NCBI RefSeq assembly: GCF_054482525.1
Contig: NZ_JBTHVG010000003.1
DNA length: 64,000 bases
DNA from: a plasmid
Reading direction: 5' to 3' (one strand)
The position numbers and the translations under genes were made by a program. Shown piece by piece: positions 7,937 through 62,600 of this stretch (position 1 is the stretch's first letter; every line of letters begins with the position of its first letter). Under the pieces are notes generated by a model, which was not told the origin of the DNA, did no database searches, and saw only the letters and a program-made list of their open reading frames with translations.

Positions 7937-8330
7937 TTCGATATGGGCATTTACTTATGCTTAAAGCTATAGTATAAAAACAATGAGCTTAAATATCAGC
8001 TCCCAAATTTGAGTAACTTTGCTTAAAGTTACTTTCGCGTTAAGCGTTGATTTAGCCGTGAAAAGCGGCCAGCTTAAACAAGCTGTAAGACACCACCGGC
8101 AAAATGTCACCTTTGTCGCTGGTGCACTTCCCATGCCTGAAAAAGGCAATCTGAATTTACCAAACCGTAACTAATTTAGCTCCTCCTGGAGCTATTTTTG
8201 TTGCGTACTTCTAATGCCAGATAGTATAAATCAGGCGGTTCATAGCTTACGGGAGATGAATGACAGGCTTTGCCTTCGTGTTGAAACAAAAAATTGTTTC
8301 TTCCTTCTTACTATATATAGGTGACCCCAA

Positions 8331-9203
8331 ATGTCTAAAAATAAAGCTCGCAGTAAAGCCCTTCATCAAACCTTTAGTGAAATTATTCCAGAGATGGATA
8401 AGGCGCTAAACAAACAGCTCTTAGAAGTTCTGATGAAATATACAGAACGTGATAATGAACTGATTGTTATTTTGAATGAGGACGGCCCAAATATCATTGA
8501 ACTTAAGTCTCTTAAGCCTGTGTCGTTGTTGGCCGAAAAGCTTTCTGCTTATTCAAGCTATTATCATGTGGATGTTGTGGAGCTCGTGGTCAAGAAAATT
8601 GATTTCGAAGGAGCTTATAAGCTTCTTAAAGCTTCCCCAGATGTACCACTTTTTAAAAGCTTAACTGAACTGGATAAATATCTTGTTGAGGAGTTTGAAA
8701 AATACGGATTAAATTCATTTCTTGACGTGGATAATCTGGATTACTCACTTGAAAAAGCCAGTGAACTCAAAAATGAGCAGTTAATAAATTGGGTTTCGGA
8801 CATCATTTGCAAACGTGAAAAATTAACTTTACGTAAGCGTTTTGATGTCGCAGTAAAGGCCCACTACGAAAATGTAGAAAAAATGTATGATACCATTCGT
8901 CCGTTAATGAAAAAACTGGGTTTCCCAGAAGATCTCATGACGCACACCTTTAGTGAGTTAAGCGTTTTTGAAACTAAAGGATGGGACCATGCAATAAAAT
9001 CGAAAATTGAGACTCTCGCTAAGCGTGAAACTCAATATTTAGATGATGCGGCTAAAGCAGAGAATCGACGTCTTGTAACAGAGAAGTTGGAGAACTCTTT
9101 AGCGATTGCACCAACTAAACCAACAAGAAATTGGTTACATATTGCCGGAATTGCCTGTTTGGTAGTCTGCACGTTCATGTATGTAACTAATAAATTTATT
9201 TAA
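8331..9203 (+). CDS. Hypothetical protein with C-terminal membrane anchor
   Basis: 290-aa ORF, AT-rich codon usage, C-terminal hydrophobic helix WLHIAGIACLVVCTFMYV; no recognised motif. Confidence 0.5.
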   Translation: MSKNKARSKALHQTFSEIIPEMDKALNKQLLEVLMKYTERDNELIVILNEDGPNIIELKSLKPVSLLAEKLSAYSSYYHVDVVELVVKKIDFEGAYKLLKASPDVPLFKSLTELDKYLVEEFEKYGLNSFLDVDNLDYSLEKASELKNEQLINWVSDIICKREKLTLRKRFDVAVKAHYENVEKMYDTIRPLMKKLGFPEDLMTHTFSELSVFETKGWDHAIKSKIETLAKRETQYLDDAAKAENRRLVTEKLENSLAIAPTKPTRNWLHIAGIACLVVCTFMYVTNKFI

Positions 9204-29594: not shown

Positions 29595-30677
29595 ATGCGT
29601 AAGAGTTATACATTTGGTATTCCATTTGGACTCCAGCGAGAATCAGGACTCTTTTTAGATATTACAGAGGTCAGCCGGGGTATTGACTGTAACTGCATCT
29701 GCCCCGCTTGCAAAACTGATCTGTTAGCAAAGCAGGGGGAGGTCAAGCTTTGGCATTTCTCACACAGTACAGCTGTAGCCGGTGACTGTGATGGTCTGAT
29801 GGAAGCCATCCGGGGAAAGATTATTGAAGTCATCAACGAGCACCAGGTTCTTGGTTTCCCAAATCTTCTCGCTGGCGACGATGGTGGGCCGGTTTCACTG
29901 AATGAGGTTAGTGGAAGCGGCAGTATGTTCGGAGGCACAGCTGATCTGTTCGTAAAGGTTAATGATTTATGTGTGGCCGTCTTTCTGGACAGGGATCGCA
30001 GCATTTCAGAGAAGTTAACCTTTGACCATCTTCATCCTTCCGAAAGAGTTGCCGCATTGCGTATCGATCTTCCTGATATTGAATATGAAATCAGTCAGGT
30101 GCAGCTCGGGCGACGTAAAACAACATACAGTGAGTGCATTGAAAGCCTGATCATTGATGAGACCAGTTCCCGGGAATGGCTATATCATCCATTAATGCAT
30201 GAACTTGAATCTGAACCTCTTCAGGAGTATCGGGGACGGGAGCCTTCAGAGGAAGGGCCTCTTCTTCAGCGCCTTGCTGACTGTAAGATGAAATTGCCTG
30301 ATATCCTTCCGGGCAGTCATAACGCGCTAGTCAGGTTACAGCAGGATACGATTGTATGTCTGTGTCGGTTAACGGTTCGGGCTTATGACATCGCTCAGAC
30401 CGATGAATTTCCTTTGTTCCTTCGCTATTTCAGGTTGCACTGCCTGGAAAACAGCGAACATGTCAGTTACGAAAGACTGATCTGCTGGCAGGAAATGATT
30501 TCAAAAACCCAGGAAGGCCAGTCCTTGACACAAAACGAACTTGAATATCTTCATGAGATTGTCCGCATCGCCTTTTACAATCACCGGCTTAACAATGTCA
30601 GTATTTCAGATGTTAAAAACCATGACACTGGAAAGAAGAGCGGCAGGGTAGAGTCACAAAATTATTCACTTTTATAA
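29595..30677 (+). CDS. CoiA-like zinc-finger protein, solitary
   Basis: N-terminal motif CNCICPACKTDLLAKQGEVKLWHFSH matches the C-x-C-P-x-C-K...HF-x-H signature also seen in the protein at 60984..61970; start moved to the ATG at 29595. Confidence 0.5.
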   Translation: MRKSYTFGIPFGLQRESGLFLDITEVSRGIDCNCICPACKTDLLAKQGEVKLWHFSHSTAVAGDCDGLMEAIRGKIIEVINEHQVLGFPNLLAGDDGGPVSLNEVSGSGSMFGGTADLFVKVNDLCVAVFLDRDRSISEKLTFDHLHPSERVAALRIDLPDIEYEISQVQLGRRKTTYSECIESLIIDETSSREWLYHPLMHELESEPLQEYRGREPSEEGPLLQRLADCKMKLPDILPGSHNALVRLQQDTIVCLCRLTVRAYDIAQTDEFPLFLRYFRLHCLENSEHVSYERLICWQEMISKTQEGQSLTQNELEYLHEIVRIAFYNHRLNNVSISDVKNHDTGKKSGRVESQNYSLL

Positions 30678-51971: not shown

Positions 51972-52343
51972 TTACAGAAATGGAATTAAAAAGTGGTGAT
52001 GCTGGGCACGTTTCTTTTCCAGCCGGGGTTTAAGCCAGAGCTGAAACTCATTCAACTTCTCAGCAGCCAAAACCGCTTCAACGGGGAAAACTTTATATTT
52101 ACCCTGTTGCTGAGGTTCACCCAGCCATCGCCTGATGGCTCCGTCAGTCCATAAACGAGTCTCTTTTAGCCTAGTTACAGTGACCCATTTTCTGGACCAT
52201 TCATCAAATTGTCGCTGGCGATCCCGATAACGTTGTTCTTCCTGCTGCCGAAGCCACTCGCGATCAACAGCAAATTTTCGGTATCCAACAAAGAGCCCTT
52301 GTACTTTGGCCATGTCATATTCCGGTTGCTTAGAGTTACTCAT
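51972..52343 (-). CDS. Hypothetical protein
   Basis: 123-aa ORF with a basic, R/Q/E-rich segment. Confidence 0.35.
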   Translation of the reverse strand: MSNSKQPEYDMAKVQGLFVGYRKFAVDREWLRQQEEQRYRDRQRQFDEWSRKWVTVTRLKETRLWTDGAIRRWLGEPQQQGKYKVFPVEAVLAAEKLNEFQLWLKPRLEKKRAQHHHFLIPFL

Positions 52344-56096: not shown

Positions 56097-56912
56097 ATGA
56101 GAGAGCCAAGACCACGCCATACCTTGCAGGTCATTCGTGTACCTTCTCTGGAGGTTCAGGACCTGGGGCTGACCAGCTTTGATAGCTGGCTTGACGAGCA
56201 CGGGTATGACAAAACGAATGCCAGAAATAACCGTACCATCTGGGCGAGAGAAGGCGGATGGCATCTGAAACGTTGCAGAAATCTTGAAACTGGCACGGAC
56301 GATTTCTGGTTTATCGCTTTCGATGGTAAAGGCGGGAAGATTTACCCGCTGAAAACCCAAAGAGACTACCGGGCTGCATATCGTAAGCTGGAAGCAGAAG
56401 GTTATGCGCCTGCGGTCATCGAGCAAATGACCACAGGCGCAGCATATAACCTGGCCTATCCACGTTCCACCCTAAAACAAGCTGAGACGGCCACCAGCGA
56501 GCCAATTCGGAAACCTGACGTAGATATCCAGGGTGAGCACTGCGAGCGCGTAGTGACGCAACGTAGTGGCGTGGCACAGGGTAAATTCAAAGCTCTGCTC
56601 ATCGAGAATTTCGCAGGCCGTTGTGCGGTAACCGGTTGGGTTAATGGAGGTGTCCTGGATGCGGCACACATTGAACATGGAACCCGGTACAATCCGTCTA
56701 ATGGCATCCTGATGACTCCAACAATGCATGCGCTGTTTGATGCCGATCTTATGGGCATAGATCCGGCCACCCTGACCGTTCATTTTAAGCCAGGCATTGA
56801 GGTGGGCGAGCTGTTTGAAGGCCGTAAAATCACACCGCTGGTGTACGATCTGGACTTAGAGCGGCTGGCCGTACGCTGGGCAGAATACCAGGGCCTTGCT
56901 CAGGACCAATGA
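56097..56912 (+). CDS. HNH endonuclease with N-terminal extension
   Basis: HNH core CAVTGWVNGGVLDAAHIEHGTRYNPSNGILMTPTMHALFD; AGGAAGAG RBS. Confidence 0.75.
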   Translation: MREPRPRHTLQVIRVPSLEVQDLGLTSFDSWLDEHGYDKTNARNNRTIWAREGGWHLKRCRNLETGTDDFWFIAFDGKGGKIYPLKTQRDYRAAYRKLEAEGYAPAVIEQMTTGAAYNLAYPRSTLKQAETATSEPIRKPDVDIQGEHCERVVTQRSGVAQGKFKALLIENFAGRCAVTGWVNGGVLDAAHIEHGTRYNPSNGILMTPTMHALFDADLMGIDPATLTVHFKPGIEVGELFEGRKITPLVYDLDLERLAVRWAEYQGLAQDQ

Positions 56913-57591: not shown

Positions 57592-58044
57592 GGCTGGCAA
57601 GGCGGTTCCTGTTCAGGAAAGTTACTTTCCGTGCGGGGACCGTAAGATACAGATAAAGCTTAAGGCCTTTGAATTTTTGGAAAGCATTTGAAAATTTCAT
57701 TGCGCTTGTCTGATATGAAACAGCCCTGCATTTCTGCAAAGGCTGAAAGAGTGTGTACGGACTTTGGAAGGAGTGATGATATACGCCTGAGCCATCCCAT
57801 CACCGCAGACAGGGTAATTAACCCTGACTAAAGCTTTCACCTATTCCGTCGCTCGCAAGCGGCTTTCGCACACTAACGAAGGTATGGCCTTTCGTCGGTG
57901 TTAAATTTTTCGGCTATTTGCAATCTGAGGTTGGATTGTAGATTTTAGTTAGAAATGGATCAAAGTCCGTTTTGTGCAAAACTTGGTTGACAACCCTCTT
58001 TTGGATGATGTGCCGTTTCGTGCAAAAGTTGGTTGGAGGCCAAG

Positions 58045-58287: not shown

Positions 58288-58947
58288 CCGCCAATCAGAC
58301 CCGCATGGTTCAGGTTTGTGTATGAGAGTCCCCAAATGGCTGTAGTTCTAACCAAAGCCTTGATTGAAGCCGGCCGCACCGGAAATAGTGGGTACAGAAA
58401 AAAGCAGTTGCTTGCGCTGGGCGTAAGTAACCCGCCGAAAAGCGGCTGGATCGAACGACTGATCGGCACTGAGGTATCTGACGAGCAGTACGAACGCTTT
58501 CTGGGGCACAGCACGAGCAAGCTGCATATTCCGGTCGAAAATGAACACCTATTCCGGTTTAAAATGAACGCTGATTCCGGCTTGCGTGTACACCGATTCC
58601 GGACACCTCAGTGCACGTACTCTGATGTCAGATGAACCGTCCTGTTCCAACGTCTTGGATCCACAACTGCCGCGCTGCGCTTGGCTGCTGGCTTGTTCAG
58701 TGAGTCGAAAAGATGCCTCCCCTCAAAGCTCAGCTTCTGCTCGAAGAATCCCTGTCCGCATACTTTCCGGAATCACTGTTCAACTTCACCGGAATACGCA
58801 CAAGCAGGCTGAACAGATCCTACGCGGAGAGCAGCCAGCCAAGGGGCTTCAGTATGCAAAGCGAGCGAAGAAGCTCGCTTCTGAAAGAAAAGCCACAATT
58901 GATCTGGATAACGAGCACCTGTCTGAAATCGAAAAGTATCGGTAGCC

Positions 58948-60987
58948 CTAGACTTTTAGCCGCTGAAGATCTCTTAGATACCATTGGTGAAACTTGCTGA
59001 AGTCAGCCTTCTGTTTCTCTACCGTGCTTTTATAGATCGCATCACTGGTAACCGCACAAGCAGTCCAGCCAGCCTCATAGACGAAGCGAGTAGCTATCGG
59101 TGACTTCTTCGGGGTGCTATCCCAGCGGTTTTTGAGCCACCGCGCAAGCCCTTCATCAAGAGGGACAACCAGATTTAGCTGCTGTTTTGTGCGAGTGATA
59201 CCGACATAAAACAGCCGACGTTCCTCCTCGATTACCTCTTCGGTCGGAGGGGTGTTCATCGATGTGCGAACGCTGTAAACATCATCGGGTTTGCCGCCAG
59301 GAAATTCCTGCTCATTCAGCCCGACCAGTATTACGTTATCCCACTCCAGCCCCTTGGAACCATGCAGTGTGGAAAGGATGAAGGGATCGCAGTCAGTTGC
59401 AGCCTCGCCTGGATTCAAGATAAGGTTTAAAAACGTGCGGGAATCGATCTTACTGGAGACAAGTAGCTCCTCGATCCTCTTGACCCCTCGTTGCTGGTCG
59501 TTCGATCCAGTGCGAGTTACACCCTCAGAGCCAACACTATCAATGAAACCCTCCATACGCAGGCGTAGTAACACATCGATAGCAGGCGTTTCCTCTCCGT
59601 CTTTCTGGCAGATAGTGGCGAGCCTGCCCAGCCGATCTTTTTGGTTTTGTGCGCCCTCGAATAACTGGCCTAGAGCAGACCATAGGTCGGCGTGCGGAGC
59701 CATCAATCCACTGAGCGCCGCTTTGAATTGCCCTTTCTGCCAGCTAAAACCAGCCTCCTTCAGAAAGCCGTAAACAATCGCTTGTTTGTTGGGATGGTTT
59801 TCCAGTAGCCGCAGATCGCCGTACACAGACAGCAAGACGCCAACTACCAGTATCCCGATTTCAGTGCGGGTGTGTAATGCGCTTGAACCATTGAGGTAGC
59901 GATAAGGTAGCCCACACAGGCGTAAAGTAATTTCCGCCTCAGCAAGGTTCGCCTTAGTGCGGGACAATATGGCTTGTGTTCCACTGCTCACCGAGAGGTT
60001 TGATAGCACCTTGGATAGGCAGTTATCAAAGTGCAATCTGACCTCTGTTTTGGGGGTGCTAGGATGACTGACACAAAGCTTGGTCAGCTTTGTAGAGTTG
60101 CGCCGAATTACCGAGTTAGCCATCAAGGAAAGCTCATGGCCAAATCTGAACGTGCATGACAGTTGAAACACCTTCGTATTCGGGTAGTGCTTTTCAAACA
60201 GTCCGCCGATAAAGTCTGGTCGAGCACCACGCCACTCATAAATACACTGGTTAACATCACCAACAGCCATAACTGACGTATCCGACTTAGATAGCAAGCG
60301 GGTCATGTCATGCTGTATCAGGTTAACGTCCTGATATTCATCAACAATGATGTGCTTGAAGTGGGCACCAAGGCTGCTGTCATTACGCAACAGTGCGACA
60401 GCCTCAACCAAACAGTCATCAAAGGTTCGCAGACTGTTTTCCTCCAGCAGCTCACAATAGCGGCCATAGGCGCGAATAAACTCCCGTTTGATGTTGCTGA
60501 ACGTTGGATCATTGGCAGCATCAACAGGAGTTACGGCCGCCGCCCGGCAGCGAGCAATAAACAGCTCGAAGTTTTCAATTTCATTGGGGTCAATAAAATT
60601 CGCCTCATGGTCAAAGCCATAGCAGTAGGCTTGCTTTACCAGTTGCTCATAGCGGTAGTCGCTTGGAGTAATGAGGTCTTTCTTCTTGATTATCTGTTGG
60701 CGTTCTCCGTAACCAACAATCTTTAAGGCCAAGCTGTGGAACGTGCGGATTTCTGGAATCACGCTCGACATCAGTGCCGTCTTCAACTTCTCCGTGAAGC
60801 TCACCTGCGCCGACTTGTTGTACATCAGGATCAGAATGGAGCGAGGATCAGTTCCCGTCTTGACCAGCCGCTCAACGCGCTTTACAAGTATGGTTGTTTT
60901 CCCGCTACCAGGTACGGCTTTTACCAACGCATGTCCGGTGTCATGGCTGACAATACTTTTCTGCTCCCAAGTCAGTCTTTTTGTCAT
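58948..60987 (-). CDS. UvrD/PcrA-like SF1 DNA helicase (679 aa)
   Basis: Walker A AVPGSGKTT, motif II IIVDEYQDVN, motif III VGDVNQCIYEWRGARPDF, motif V ILSTLHGSKGLEWDNVIL, motif VI FYVGITRTKQQL; its ATG overlaps the stop of the upstream gene (ATGA). Confidence 0.85.
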   Translation of the reverse strand: MTKRLTWEQKSIVSHDTGHALVKAVPGSGKTTILVKRVERLVKTGTDPRSILILMYNKSAQVSFTEKLKTALMSSVIPEIRTFHSLALKIVGYGERQQIIKKKDLITPSDYRYEQLVKQAYCYGFDHEANFIDPNEIENFELFIARCRAAAVTPVDAANDPTFSNIKREFIRAYGRYCELLEENSLRTFDDCLVEAVALLRNDSSLGAHFKHIIVDEYQDVNLIQHDMTRLLSKSDTSVMAVGDVNQCIYEWRGARPDFIGGLFEKHYPNTKVFQLSCTFRFGHELSLMANSVIRRNSTKLTKLCVSHPSTPKTEVRLHFDNCLSKVLSNLSVSSGTQAILSRTKANLAEAEITLRLCGLPYRYLNGSSALHTRTEIGILVVGVLLSVYGDLRLLENHPNKQAIVYGFLKEAGFSWQKGQFKAALSGLMAPHADLWSALGQLFEGAQNQKDRLGRLATICQKDGEETPAIDVLLRLRMEGFIDSVGSEGVTRTGSNDQQRGVKRIEELLVSSKIDSRTFLNLILNPGEAATDCDPFILSTLHGSKGLEWDNVILVGLNEQEFPGGKPDDVYSVRTSMNTPPTEEVIEEERRLFYVGITRTKQQLNLVVPLDEGLARWLKNRWDSTPKKSPIATRFVYEAGWTACAVTSDAIYKSTVEKQKADFSKFHQWYLRDLQRLKV

Positions 60988-61970
60988 GCCTTAACCTTGT
61001 AATTGGCGCACTGACGGGCCTCGGTGTAGGGAACGATCTTTGCTTTACTGTGACATTGCAGATAGCCATCCTCCCATCGGCCTGCTTGCTCGCACATAAT
61101 GCAGTTGGGAAATAGTGAATGAGGATCGGCGTGACGGATAAAAGCTCGTAAGTTATCTGCCAGCTCAGCGGCCCCTAACGATCTAGGCCATGTGTTCACG
61201 TCAGAATTGATTGTTAAATCCACTTCAGCGAGCGGCATCGTTTGTTCGTTGAGTCGGCCGGAACCACTTAAACTCCAGACAGACATATCCACGTTACCTA
61301 CTGAGCAGACGCCGCTACAGGTGTCCACAGATTGAAACGGGGGAAGCCAGTTGAATACTCTCAGGATCTTCTCCTTGATCGAGTAGGCCCCGGTAAGCAA
61401 CATCTGAATATCAGAGGCAGATTGGACCTTAAACTCAAGAATCGGGATACCGGCTTCGATCTTGTCTTGAGAGCAGGGGTGTGTGACACAAATCTCTACG
61501 TAGCAACGCCTTTCGCCAGTCGTATCATACAACATCACGTCTGGTCGCAGCCCTGTGACCTTATCGTGTTTTTCCAGCTCTGCCTGATCGAAAAATTGAG
61601 TCAAGTTGTAGCGTGCAGGCACGGATTTTACGCACTGACGTGCTTCGTCTCTAACTAAGGCTAAATGAGGACCATTACAGGCAACCCGGCGCTCCAGCTC
61701 AAGGCTAATAGGCATTTCACGGCTGAGAGCTTGTTGGTAGCGATAGAAGAATGCTTCTTTGCCGCACTTGTGAAGATAGGTTTCAAGGGCACAGCATTCT
61801 TCCGAATGGCGAAAGTGCTTAGCGTTGAACTCGCCCATTACCGGGGTCAGGGGGCTCTTACAACCTGGGCAGGTGTAAGTATGTGAGCGCAGGGCAGCGC
61901 CAATGTGCGTGAGGGTGCCCTCGTCGTCTAGCGCGTAAGCGTATTGTATTGAGCTGGATTGAGTTGTCAT
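60984..61970 (-). CDS. CoiA-like zinc-finger/nuclease-family protein, helicase partner
   Basis: N-terminal YTCPGCKSPLTPVMGEFNAKHFRH signature; further Cys/His clusters; RPDVML...E-x-C patch suggestive of a nuclease core; start set at the ATG at 61970 (ORF-track TTG at 61988). Confidence 0.55.
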   Translation of the reverse strand: MTTQSSSIQYAYALDDEGTLTHIGAALRSHTYTCPGCKSPLTPVMGEFNAKHFRHSEECCALETYLHKCGKEAFFYRYQQALSREMPISLELERRVACNGPHLALVRDEARQCVKSVPARYNLTQFFDQAELEKHDKVTGLRPDVMLYDTTGERRCYVEICVTHPCSQDKIEAGIPILEFKVQSASDIQMLLTGAYSIKEKILRVFNWLPPFQSVDTCSGVCSVGNVDMSVWSLSGSGRLNEQTMPLAEVDLTINSDVNTWPRSLGAAELADNLRAFIRHADPHSLFPNCIMCEQAGRWEDGYLQCHSKAKIVPYTEARQCANYKVKA

Positions 61971-62600
61971 GACTGCGTAGCCTCCCAAAAAAATCCAGCT
62001 AAGAACAGACCTTACGACAGGGAAATGGTAAGTAGTGCTTCTTGAAGCAGTCGAGTGTACAGCGGCTCAGTGAAAAAGCTAATCGCCCGCTCAACAACCT
62101 AGTGATACTGGTGCAGATTCGACAATGAGTTAATGCCCGGAGAGCATCTGCAAGACTTCTAGCTGGAAGGCATTCCAACCAGCCCTCGCTTCTGAAAAGC
62201 CGTCAGGAAACGGTAAAATCCAACCAAGTGAGCAACTTCACTTGATCAAAGATCTAAGGCTAGAATGATGGAATTACAACCTTAGTTTGCAAATAGCCAA
62301 TTTTTCAAACTTTGCTTACTTTGTCAAGGAAGGTGACCGCAGTAGCAGGCACAACTACTTTAATCTGTATGAATAATAAGGTAGAACCGGCCAGTGAATG
62401 AATGCTTACCCTGAAATCAGGCGGACAACCTTCAGGAATATTGATAGCAAGACTGAATCTCTCGCTGCGGCGATAAACATTTCGCCATAACCCTGAACGA
62501 GAGTGGTTCATCCATCATATACAGGAGCGTTACATGCGCAAATTTAAGTACATAATCTGTCACCAGTCCTGACCAAGGTCCTTTCGCCCGGGATGTTAGG

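Follow-up and report, generated by a model that had tools for sequence, protein, structure and literature searches.

A CoiA-like nuclease and a UvrD-type helicase encoded as a pair on an IncHI2 plasmid: a candidate immunity module

As described by Hardy et al. (bioRxiv 10.1101/2024.02.06.579203), CoiA carries a C2H2 zinc finger, an atypical PD-(D/E)XK core (D95, E105) and a long C-terminal region; it is a structure-specific endonuclease, which in synergy with the RadA helicase resolves the D-loop formed in transformation, and its reported range is confined to Bacillota. In Hachiman, the helicase presumably senses the state of the DNA and controls the nuclease (PMC11914072). An anti-phage protein with a CoiA domain was reported by Vassallo et al. 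2022. We analysed two overlapping genes in a 64,000-nucleotide stretch of plasmid DNA, hereafter the window (RefSeq assembly GCF_054482525.1, contig NZ_JBTHVG010000003.1). The first encodes a 328-aa protein with a CoiA-like zinc finger and the second a 679-aa helicase of superfamily 1 (SF1). An earlier note, made from the sequence alone, had proposed the pair as a candidate two-gene defence system. With a probability of about 0.55, we read it as a mobile nuclease-helicase module, most likely directed against invading DNA, that is, phage and/or competing plasmids.

Conservation and surroundings of the pair

The two open reading frames (ORFs) and the ATGA overlap that joins them were found where the earlier note had placed them and, judging by hundreds of homologues, both are conserved genes and not chance ORFs. 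For the pair as a unit, loci were sampled from public assemblies and one-genome-per-species collections. A homologous helicase gene was found directly downstream, on the same strand and overlapping, at all loci with a full-length nuclease gene (24 of 24). These comprise the window, 20 gammaproteobacterial genomes, in which the nuclease is 38-83% and the helicase 40-88% identical to that of the window, and three more distant lineages with ~28% nuclease identity; one further locus (L022) holds a truncated nuclease gene only. The conservation across genomes that the earlier note had put up for checking was thus observed over nuclease identities of ~28-83%. The ATGA junction is retained at 17 of the 21 other loci, and the identities of nuclease and helicase co-vary across loci (r = 0.97). 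There is no third conserved gene, any other gene occurring in at most three of 21 loci. The helicase-linked nucleases formed one clade when a tree was built by neighbour joining (no bootstrap), and the two groups nearest to it as sisters, when checked later, proved to have the helicase too. A Rosetta-stone test of the 150 top-ranking representatives detected no fusion of nuclease and helicase.

The flanks of the pair vary from genome to genome. Matches to PADLOC models at E < 1e-5 were obtained for 16 of the 20 large flanking proteins, taken from 11 loci and with no background control. They include complete type I restriction-modification (RM) sets, a Mrr-type type IV enzyme, a PtuA-like ATPase inside an RM operon, SoFic, a ThsA-like SIR2 protein, MADS-like ATPases and several PDC candidates. 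This fits the pair being a defence-island resident. In the window itself, the pair abuts a decayed hsdM gene, present as a frameshifted remnant of the HsdM N-terminus, and lies among hipB/hipA, a 271-aa HNH protein and an HNH fragment, all of them already listed in that note.

The window carries the sequence of a large IncHI2 antibiotic-resistance plasmid. It is part of a conjugative plasmid of IncHI2 type, with trhI/trhN/trhU transfer genes, a ter operon and an H-NS gene, and a related plasmid is typed IncHI2A/MOBH/MPF_F in PLSDB. IncHI2 plasmids rank among the main carriers of mcr-1 and carbapenemase genes. We found the pair in 116 of 5,426 complete E. coli genomes, plasmid-borne in all but one, and in ~825 PLSDB plasmids at 95-100% identity. 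Judged by the backbone gene trhI, which occurs in 1,115 PLSDB plasmids, the share of IncHI2-type plasmids with the pair is about 74%. Moreover, a transposon or insertion sequence splits the helicase gene at one site in 218 of 823 carrier plasmids (~26%), mostly in Enterobacter hormaechei lineages. The split lies at residue ~554 (window ~59320-59328), just past motif V, so that motif VI is lost, and the orphan 3' fragment is labelled '3'-5' exonuclease' by PGAP, which is misleading. Because the pair is missing or its helicase interrupted in many IncHI2 plasmids, neither the maintenance nor, probably, the transfer of the plasmid depends on it.

These figures bear on a function in IncHI2 conjugation or establishment, such as the processing of the incoming single strand. 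Around 800 conjugative IncHI2-type plasmids carry the pair, and CoiA acts on incoming single-stranded DNA in transformation. However, TrhI already provides the plasmid with a transfer helicase, many IncHI2 plasmids in which the pair is absent or disrupted are still typed conjugative, and the same pair is chromosomal, with no transfer genes nearby, in Vibrio, Halomonas, Shewanella, Colwellia, Marinobacter, Aeromonas and Pseudomonas. We regard such a function as highly improbable.

Another reading is a mobile recombination or repair module, in which a CoiA-like structure-specific endonuclease and its own helicase would process D-loops, forks or multimers for the element that carries them, much as CoiA/RadA and YraN/ComM do in transformation, or in the manner of AddAB-type end processing. 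UvrD-family helicases work on recombination intermediates, IncHI2 backbones often carry the pair, and genuine CoiA, a D-loop resolvase synergistic with a helicase, has the same three-part architecture. On the other hand, housekeeping-type repair genes are not as a rule sporadic, island-borne and set amid RM, SIR2 and Septu-like genes, the hosts already have RecBCD, RuvABC and YraN/ComM, and about 26% of IncHI2 plasmids do without the pair and its helicase gene is broken in about 26% of the plasmids that carry it, with no evident loss of lineages. A repair module is, in our opinion, a doubtful explanation. As for the origin of the pair, no phage nuclease of this kind was found among 50,697 phage records and the phage homologues of the helicase are generic (at most 30% identity), which ruled out a phage source.

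Predicted domains of the two proteins and partners of the nuclease

The sole Pfam match of the small protein is CoiA_N (PF25164; residues 27-59, E 4.7e-5), which covers a finger reading Y-T-C34-P-G-C37-K ... H52-F-R-H55. The signature proposed earlier, 'C-x-C-P-x-C-K' followed by a histidine pair, was therefore right for the finger (C34, C37, H52, H55) and wrong for its additional cysteine. The label of CoiA-like protein was also borne out in part, by the finger and the general architecture. PF06054, the model of the CoiA nuclease domain, was matched neither by the window nuclease nor by two distant relatives, even at E <= 10, and is carried by none of the database relatives of the nuclease; nor does the family share the Bacillota range of CoiA. 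Searches of NCBIfam and PHROGs with the small protein returned nothing.

We then looked at residue conservation in an alignment of 36 sequences reaching ~25% identity. Fifteen residues are invariant (H55, E63, H67, K71, C113, E133, D144, E159, K170, E179, C222, C290, C293, C306 and C321), and C34, C37, H52, C60, C98 and H164 are conserved in at least 90% of the sequences. When mapped on a structure model, E63, H67 and K71 fall on the first helix, P143-D144 opens strand 2, E159-I-C161 lies on strand 3 and K170 on the following helix. The core is thus predicted to adopt a PD-(D/E)xK fold, with its Asp on strand 2, its Glu on strand 3 and an atypical third position. Indeed, the position of the canonical (D/E)xK lysine is occupied by Cys161, and by Cys or Ala in relatives, and the invariant K71 and K170 may substitute for it. 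At the C-terminus, the motif NCxLCxYH...C...C recurs in distant and duplicated family members, and this four-cysteine module presumably binds metal. The small protein has no solved counterpart, as a family sequence profile run against the PDB gave chance TIM matches only and a Foldseek search of the PDB with the model gave no match at E <= 0.001.

The large protein matches Pfam UvrD-helicase (3.7e-44) and UvrD_C (4.9e-18). Together with CoiA_N, these correspond to the CoiA and UvrD domains for which the earlier note had proposed a profile search. Motifs I, Ia, II, III, IV, V and VI were all located, as had been claimed, and are conserved in 12 orthologues. The best PDB relatives are D. radiodurans UvrD (4e-34), PcrA and Rep, with solved GajB at merely 1e-11. 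The protein scores far under each NCBIfam equivalog cut-off (PcrA, Rep, UvrD, HelD and others), and hence it is not an orthologue of any of these four helicases. Against PADLOC, its best match is to GajB models (E 1.4e-51); since RTasHel scores about equally (6.3e-51), we consider the GajB match a generic SF1 match.

Outside the helicase-linked clade, the partner of the nuclease changes. An exhaustive profile search (E <= 0.001) retrieved 3,332 representative clusters of the nuclease family. The family is found in Gammaproteobacteria, on IncHI2 plasmids and, more distantly, in Bacteroidota and Cyanobacteria. At 31 Bacteroidota loci (L023-L053; nuclease identity 23-35%), there is no helicase homologue within ~8 kb. 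About 20 of the 31 have instead, upstream of the nuclease gene and coupled to it (-10 or +2 nt), a gene for a protein of ~160 aa with a C-terminal helix-turn-helix (HTH) of HipB/XRE type (in L050, 7493-7981 followed by 7971-9020), which gives the appearance of another two-gene system based on the same nuclease. Other family members stand alone, one of them adjoining a type IIG RM gene. Long members of 440-725 aa (P0078, P0080, P0136, P0154 and similar) have the nuclease core twice in tandem and a single C-terminal cysteine module, and in P0154 the duplication spans the whole protein. Two relatives (P0236 and P0237) are fusions with a YAcAr SLOG domain, which is typical of conflict systems. Altogether, these changes of partner make the nuclease look like a reusable effector, of which the helicase is one of several partners.

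A selfish, toxin-type addiction module is a further reading. In this scheme, a nuclease toxin would be restrained by the helicase in the window pair, and by the XRE-type HTH protein in Bacteroidota, and would mainly stabilise its island or plasmid. The HTH-gene-first layout of the Bacteroidota loci resembles controller/antitoxin arrangements, and in the window the pair is found beside hipBA. Yet it is unlikely that a simple antitoxin would take the form of a 679-aa helicase in which all ATPase motifs are conserved, and about a quarter of the carrier plasmids combine an intact nuclease gene with a helicase truncated before motif VI. These carriers speak against a need for helicase activity in holding a lethal toxin in check, even though they keep the N-terminal 553 residues of the helicase. 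We consider an addiction module unlikely.

The locus in the window

The positions of the genes, motifs and candidate signals of the pair are collected in the table below.

Table. Features of the nuclease-helicase pair, in window coordinates
Feature	Position	Strand	Basis or detail
Gene 1: 328-aa CoiA-like zinc-finger/PD-(D/E)xK nuclease (predicted)	60984..61970	(-)	RefSeq WP_001572342.1
Gene 2: 679-aa SF1A UvrD/Rep/PcrA-type helicase	58948..60987	(-)	ORF; RefSeq WP_032192809.1; Pfam; closest PDB sequences
ATGA stop/start overlap, translational coupling	60984..60987	(-)	read directly: ...GGC ATG ACA AAA...
Shine-Dalgarno GGGAGG	61981..61986	(-)	10 nt upstream of ATG 61970; sequence read
Candidate sigma-70 promoter TTGACA-16-AAAAAT	62300..62327	(-)	consensus match only; ~330 nt upstream of gene 1
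C2H2 zinc finger C34, C37, H52, H55	61806..61871	(-)	Pfam CoiA_N + 36-sequence alignment
Predicted PD-(D/E)xK nuclease core, residues 63-181	61428..61784	(-)	E63/H67/K71 helix, P143-D144, E159-I-C161, K170, E179
C-terminal four-cysteine module C290-x2-C293 ... C306 ... C321	61008..61103	(-)	four cysteines invariant to ~25% identity
Helicase motif I/Walker A AVPGSGKTT (K30)	60892..60918	(-)	
Helicase motif II VDEYQD	60328..60345	(-)	
Helicase motif III VGDVNQCIYEWRG	60226..60264	(-)	
Helicase motif V TLHGSKGLEWD	59338..59370	(-)	
Helicase motif VI EERRLFYVGITRTK	59185..59226	(-)	

A longer ORF for gene 1 (60984-61988 (-), 334 aa) opens with TTG; given the Shine-Dalgarno sequence and the same start in RefSeq, translation probably begins at the ATG listed above. 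A scan of 57.5-63 kb of the window with Rfam gave no match, and no intrinsic terminator was detected 3' of the helicase gene. The non-coding DNA just downstream of the helicase stop contains tandem 23-nt repeats (58527-58572; two copies, 83% identical), and an inverted repeat of 16-30 nt, with arms ~160-190 nt apart, is found at 58565-58795. A 22-nt element, GGCTATTTGCAA[T/A]CT[G/A]AGGTTG, occurs exactly twice in the window (0.01 expected by chance), at 57912-57933 (+) and 62277-62298 (-), as an inverted pair around the hsdM remnant and the nuclease-helicase operon. Both copies stand upstream of a gene and share its orientation, the right one beginning 1 nt past the predicted -10. Other IncHI2 plasmids have the element as well, whereas the pair in other genomes is not preceded by it; a shared operator or leader, or else a cassette boundary, could account for it.

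Three other observations concern neighbouring genes. Several unrelated genomes have an HNH-type nuclease gene no more than a few kb from the pair, at varying distance and orientation (window 56097-56912 (+); L018 13568-14716; L021 13113-14255; L003 17703-18830; L004 413-1654). The 271-aa HNH protein of the window has homologues in two Colwellia loci, and HNH_2 proteins are found in Vibrio and Halomonas loci; this recurrence may be a coincidental co-residence in islands. The window also encodes a second 'competence protein CoiA family' protein (29595-30614 (+), 340 aa, WP_095454422.1), which adjoins an Hha/YmoA gene. It has the zinc finger alone (CPxCK...HFSHS) in common with the nuclease of the pair, the remainder being unrelated, and it matches no PADLOC model. 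Finally, a 123-aa ORF at 51972-52343 (-) has a weak PADLOC match over ~40 residues to JetB, the MukE-like protein of Wadjet (E 6.6e-5), which is probably not meaningful on its own.

Proposed mechanism and comparison with described systems

The reading of the pair as a defence module is suggested by guilt by association: it is kept together in variable, defence-rich flanks, has a sporadic accessory distribution and, in the window, neighbours a decayed hsdM, an HNH nuclease and hipBA. The conserved catalytic-type residues and the full set of helicase motifs, as seen in the alignments, are consistent with two active enzymes and would also favour it, as would two features of the wider nuclease family, the RM genes beside stand-alone relatives and the fusion to a SLOG domain. 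Several points weigh against the defence reading. The defence association is qualitative, because the flanking proteins were picked by size and uncontrolled for background. On IncHI2, the pair behaves as a common backbone accessory and not as a variable cargo cassette, which leaves room for a role in plasmid biology. The catalytic competence of the nuclease is an assumption, given that Cys161 replaces the canonical lysine. A crude linker-fused AlphaFold2 model of the pair (9 paired orthologues) reached a pTM of 0.44 and so lends no support to a defined nuclease-helicase complex. Furthermore, neither protein is mentioned in the literature that we found, and earlier guilt-by-association screens missed the pair, which is absent from PADLOC 2.0, candidate families included.

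If the pair is a defence module, its mechanism might be as follows. The first gene would provide an endonuclease built like CoiA, with a C2H2 finger, an atypical core (D144, E159, ExC in place of ExK) and a four-cysteine C-terminus. The second would provide an active-looking SF1A helicase of UvrD type, made in fixed proportion to the nuclease through the ATGA overlap. The helicase would load onto single-stranded or branched DNA, or onto DNA ends, exposed when foreign DNA replicates or recombines. It would then unwind this DNA or translocate on it, and thereby present the substrate to the nuclease or license it to cut, possibly within a physical complex of the two proteins. By analogy with the CoiA-like fold, cleavage may be structure-specific. 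The logic would resemble that of Hachiman and Gabija, and the enzymology that of the CoiA/RadA partnership. A more specific version, which we put forward tentatively as a possibility, is that the pair makes up an immunity system not described before: a structure-specific endonuclease of CoiA type, hard-wired to a UvrD-type motor of its own, would recognise and cut D-loops, forks or other branched or single-stranded intermediates of replicating foreign DNA.

Should the pair restrict phage or plasmids, it would represent a nuclease-helicase defence architecture distinct from Gabija and Hachiman, and a function would be assigned to a large family now mislabelled 'competence protein CoiA'. This family, which has at least 3,300 clusters, would supply a versatile nuclease effector that acts alone, with an HTH regulator or with the helicase. 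Most IncHI2 multidrug-resistance plasmids would shield their hosts from phage or exclude rival plasmids, and such immunity on the IncHI2 backbone could shape host range, plasmid competition and the outcome of phage therapy. The pair would be a defence offshoot of the nuclease/helicase partnerships for which the resolution of D-loops in transformation was lately shown, and would connect immune effectors with D-loop nucleases of the competence type, under the hypothesis of structure-specific cleavage coupled to a 3'-5' motor. A practical result is already at hand in the corrected annotation, as the small protein is not CoiA and the orphan helicase fragment is not a 3'-5' exonuclease.

How does the pair compare with the systems described so far? 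We found no named system, model or paper covering it in PADLOC 2.0 (2023), NCBIfam or the literature searched, as the earlier note had supposed when it could match it to none of the named helicase-containing systems; no GajA or HamA partner is present and the helicase belongs to SF1, not to superfamily 2 (SF2). An unpublished or very recent name may have escaped these sources. With CoiA, the nuclease shares the N-terminal C2H2 finger, the atypical PD-(D/E)xK core with Asp on strand 2 and Glu on strand 3, the long C-terminal extension and the possession of a helicase partner. It differs in failing the PF06054 model, in the four invariant cysteines of its C-terminal domain, in its occurrence in Gammaproteobacteria and plasmids and not in Bacillota, in its setting in defence islands instead of a competence regulon, and in its partner, a co-transcribed SF1 helicase of UvrD type where CoiA has the unlinked DnaB-type RadA. 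As the architecture is shared while the sequence model fails and organisms and contexts differ, the nuclease is CoiA-like in design and not a member of the family. As to the CoiA-domain anti-phage protein of Vassallo et al. 2022, none of the PADLOC PD-T4, PD-T7 and PD-Lambda models was matched by the nuclease.

Among multi-gene defence systems, Druantia type I comes in through the sole match of the small protein in PADLOC, a weak one (E 3.9e-4) in which residues 13-85 (window ~61716-61934), that is, the finger and first helix, resemble the DruB N-terminus. The same match was obtained with one distant family member, and DruB may start with the same zinc-finger and helix module. However, the likeness stops at ~75 residues, DruA, DruC, DruD and DruE are absent and our unit has two genes. 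The literature that we found on DruB reports no function for it. AddA, RecB and AdnA were among the weak sequence or fold matches of the pair, and AddAB, RecBCD and AdnAB likewise combine a UvrD-like SF1 motor with a PD-(D/E)xK nuclease that has a conserved cysteine cluster. In our pair, in contrast, the nuclease is a separate, small zinc-finger protein, a second motor and a Chi-recognition subunit are both lacking, and the cysteine spacing is unlike that of the 'iron staple' of AddB/Cas4.

The nearest defence systems in logic are Gabija and Hachiman. Like Gabija, the pair consists of two genes for a nuclease and a UvrD-like SF1 helicase, but it is without GajA, an OLD-family ATPase/TOPRIM protein, and its nuclease has a predicted PD-(D/E)xK fold. 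The helicase is, moreover, ~180 aa longer than solved GajB and much closer to UvrD/PcrA/Rep. A Gabija system with an overlooked GajA was rejected, as there is no GajA match, no third conserved gene and a helicase nearer to UvrD. Like Hachiman, the pair has the nuclease gene first and the helicase gene second, an effector of PD-(D/E)xK type and, presumably, a helicase that controls the nuclease; unlike it, the pair matches no HamA or HamB model, HamA being a DUF1837 protein and HamB an SF2 helicase. Set beside these systems, the pair is a credible candidate for a new nuclease-helicase immunity module.

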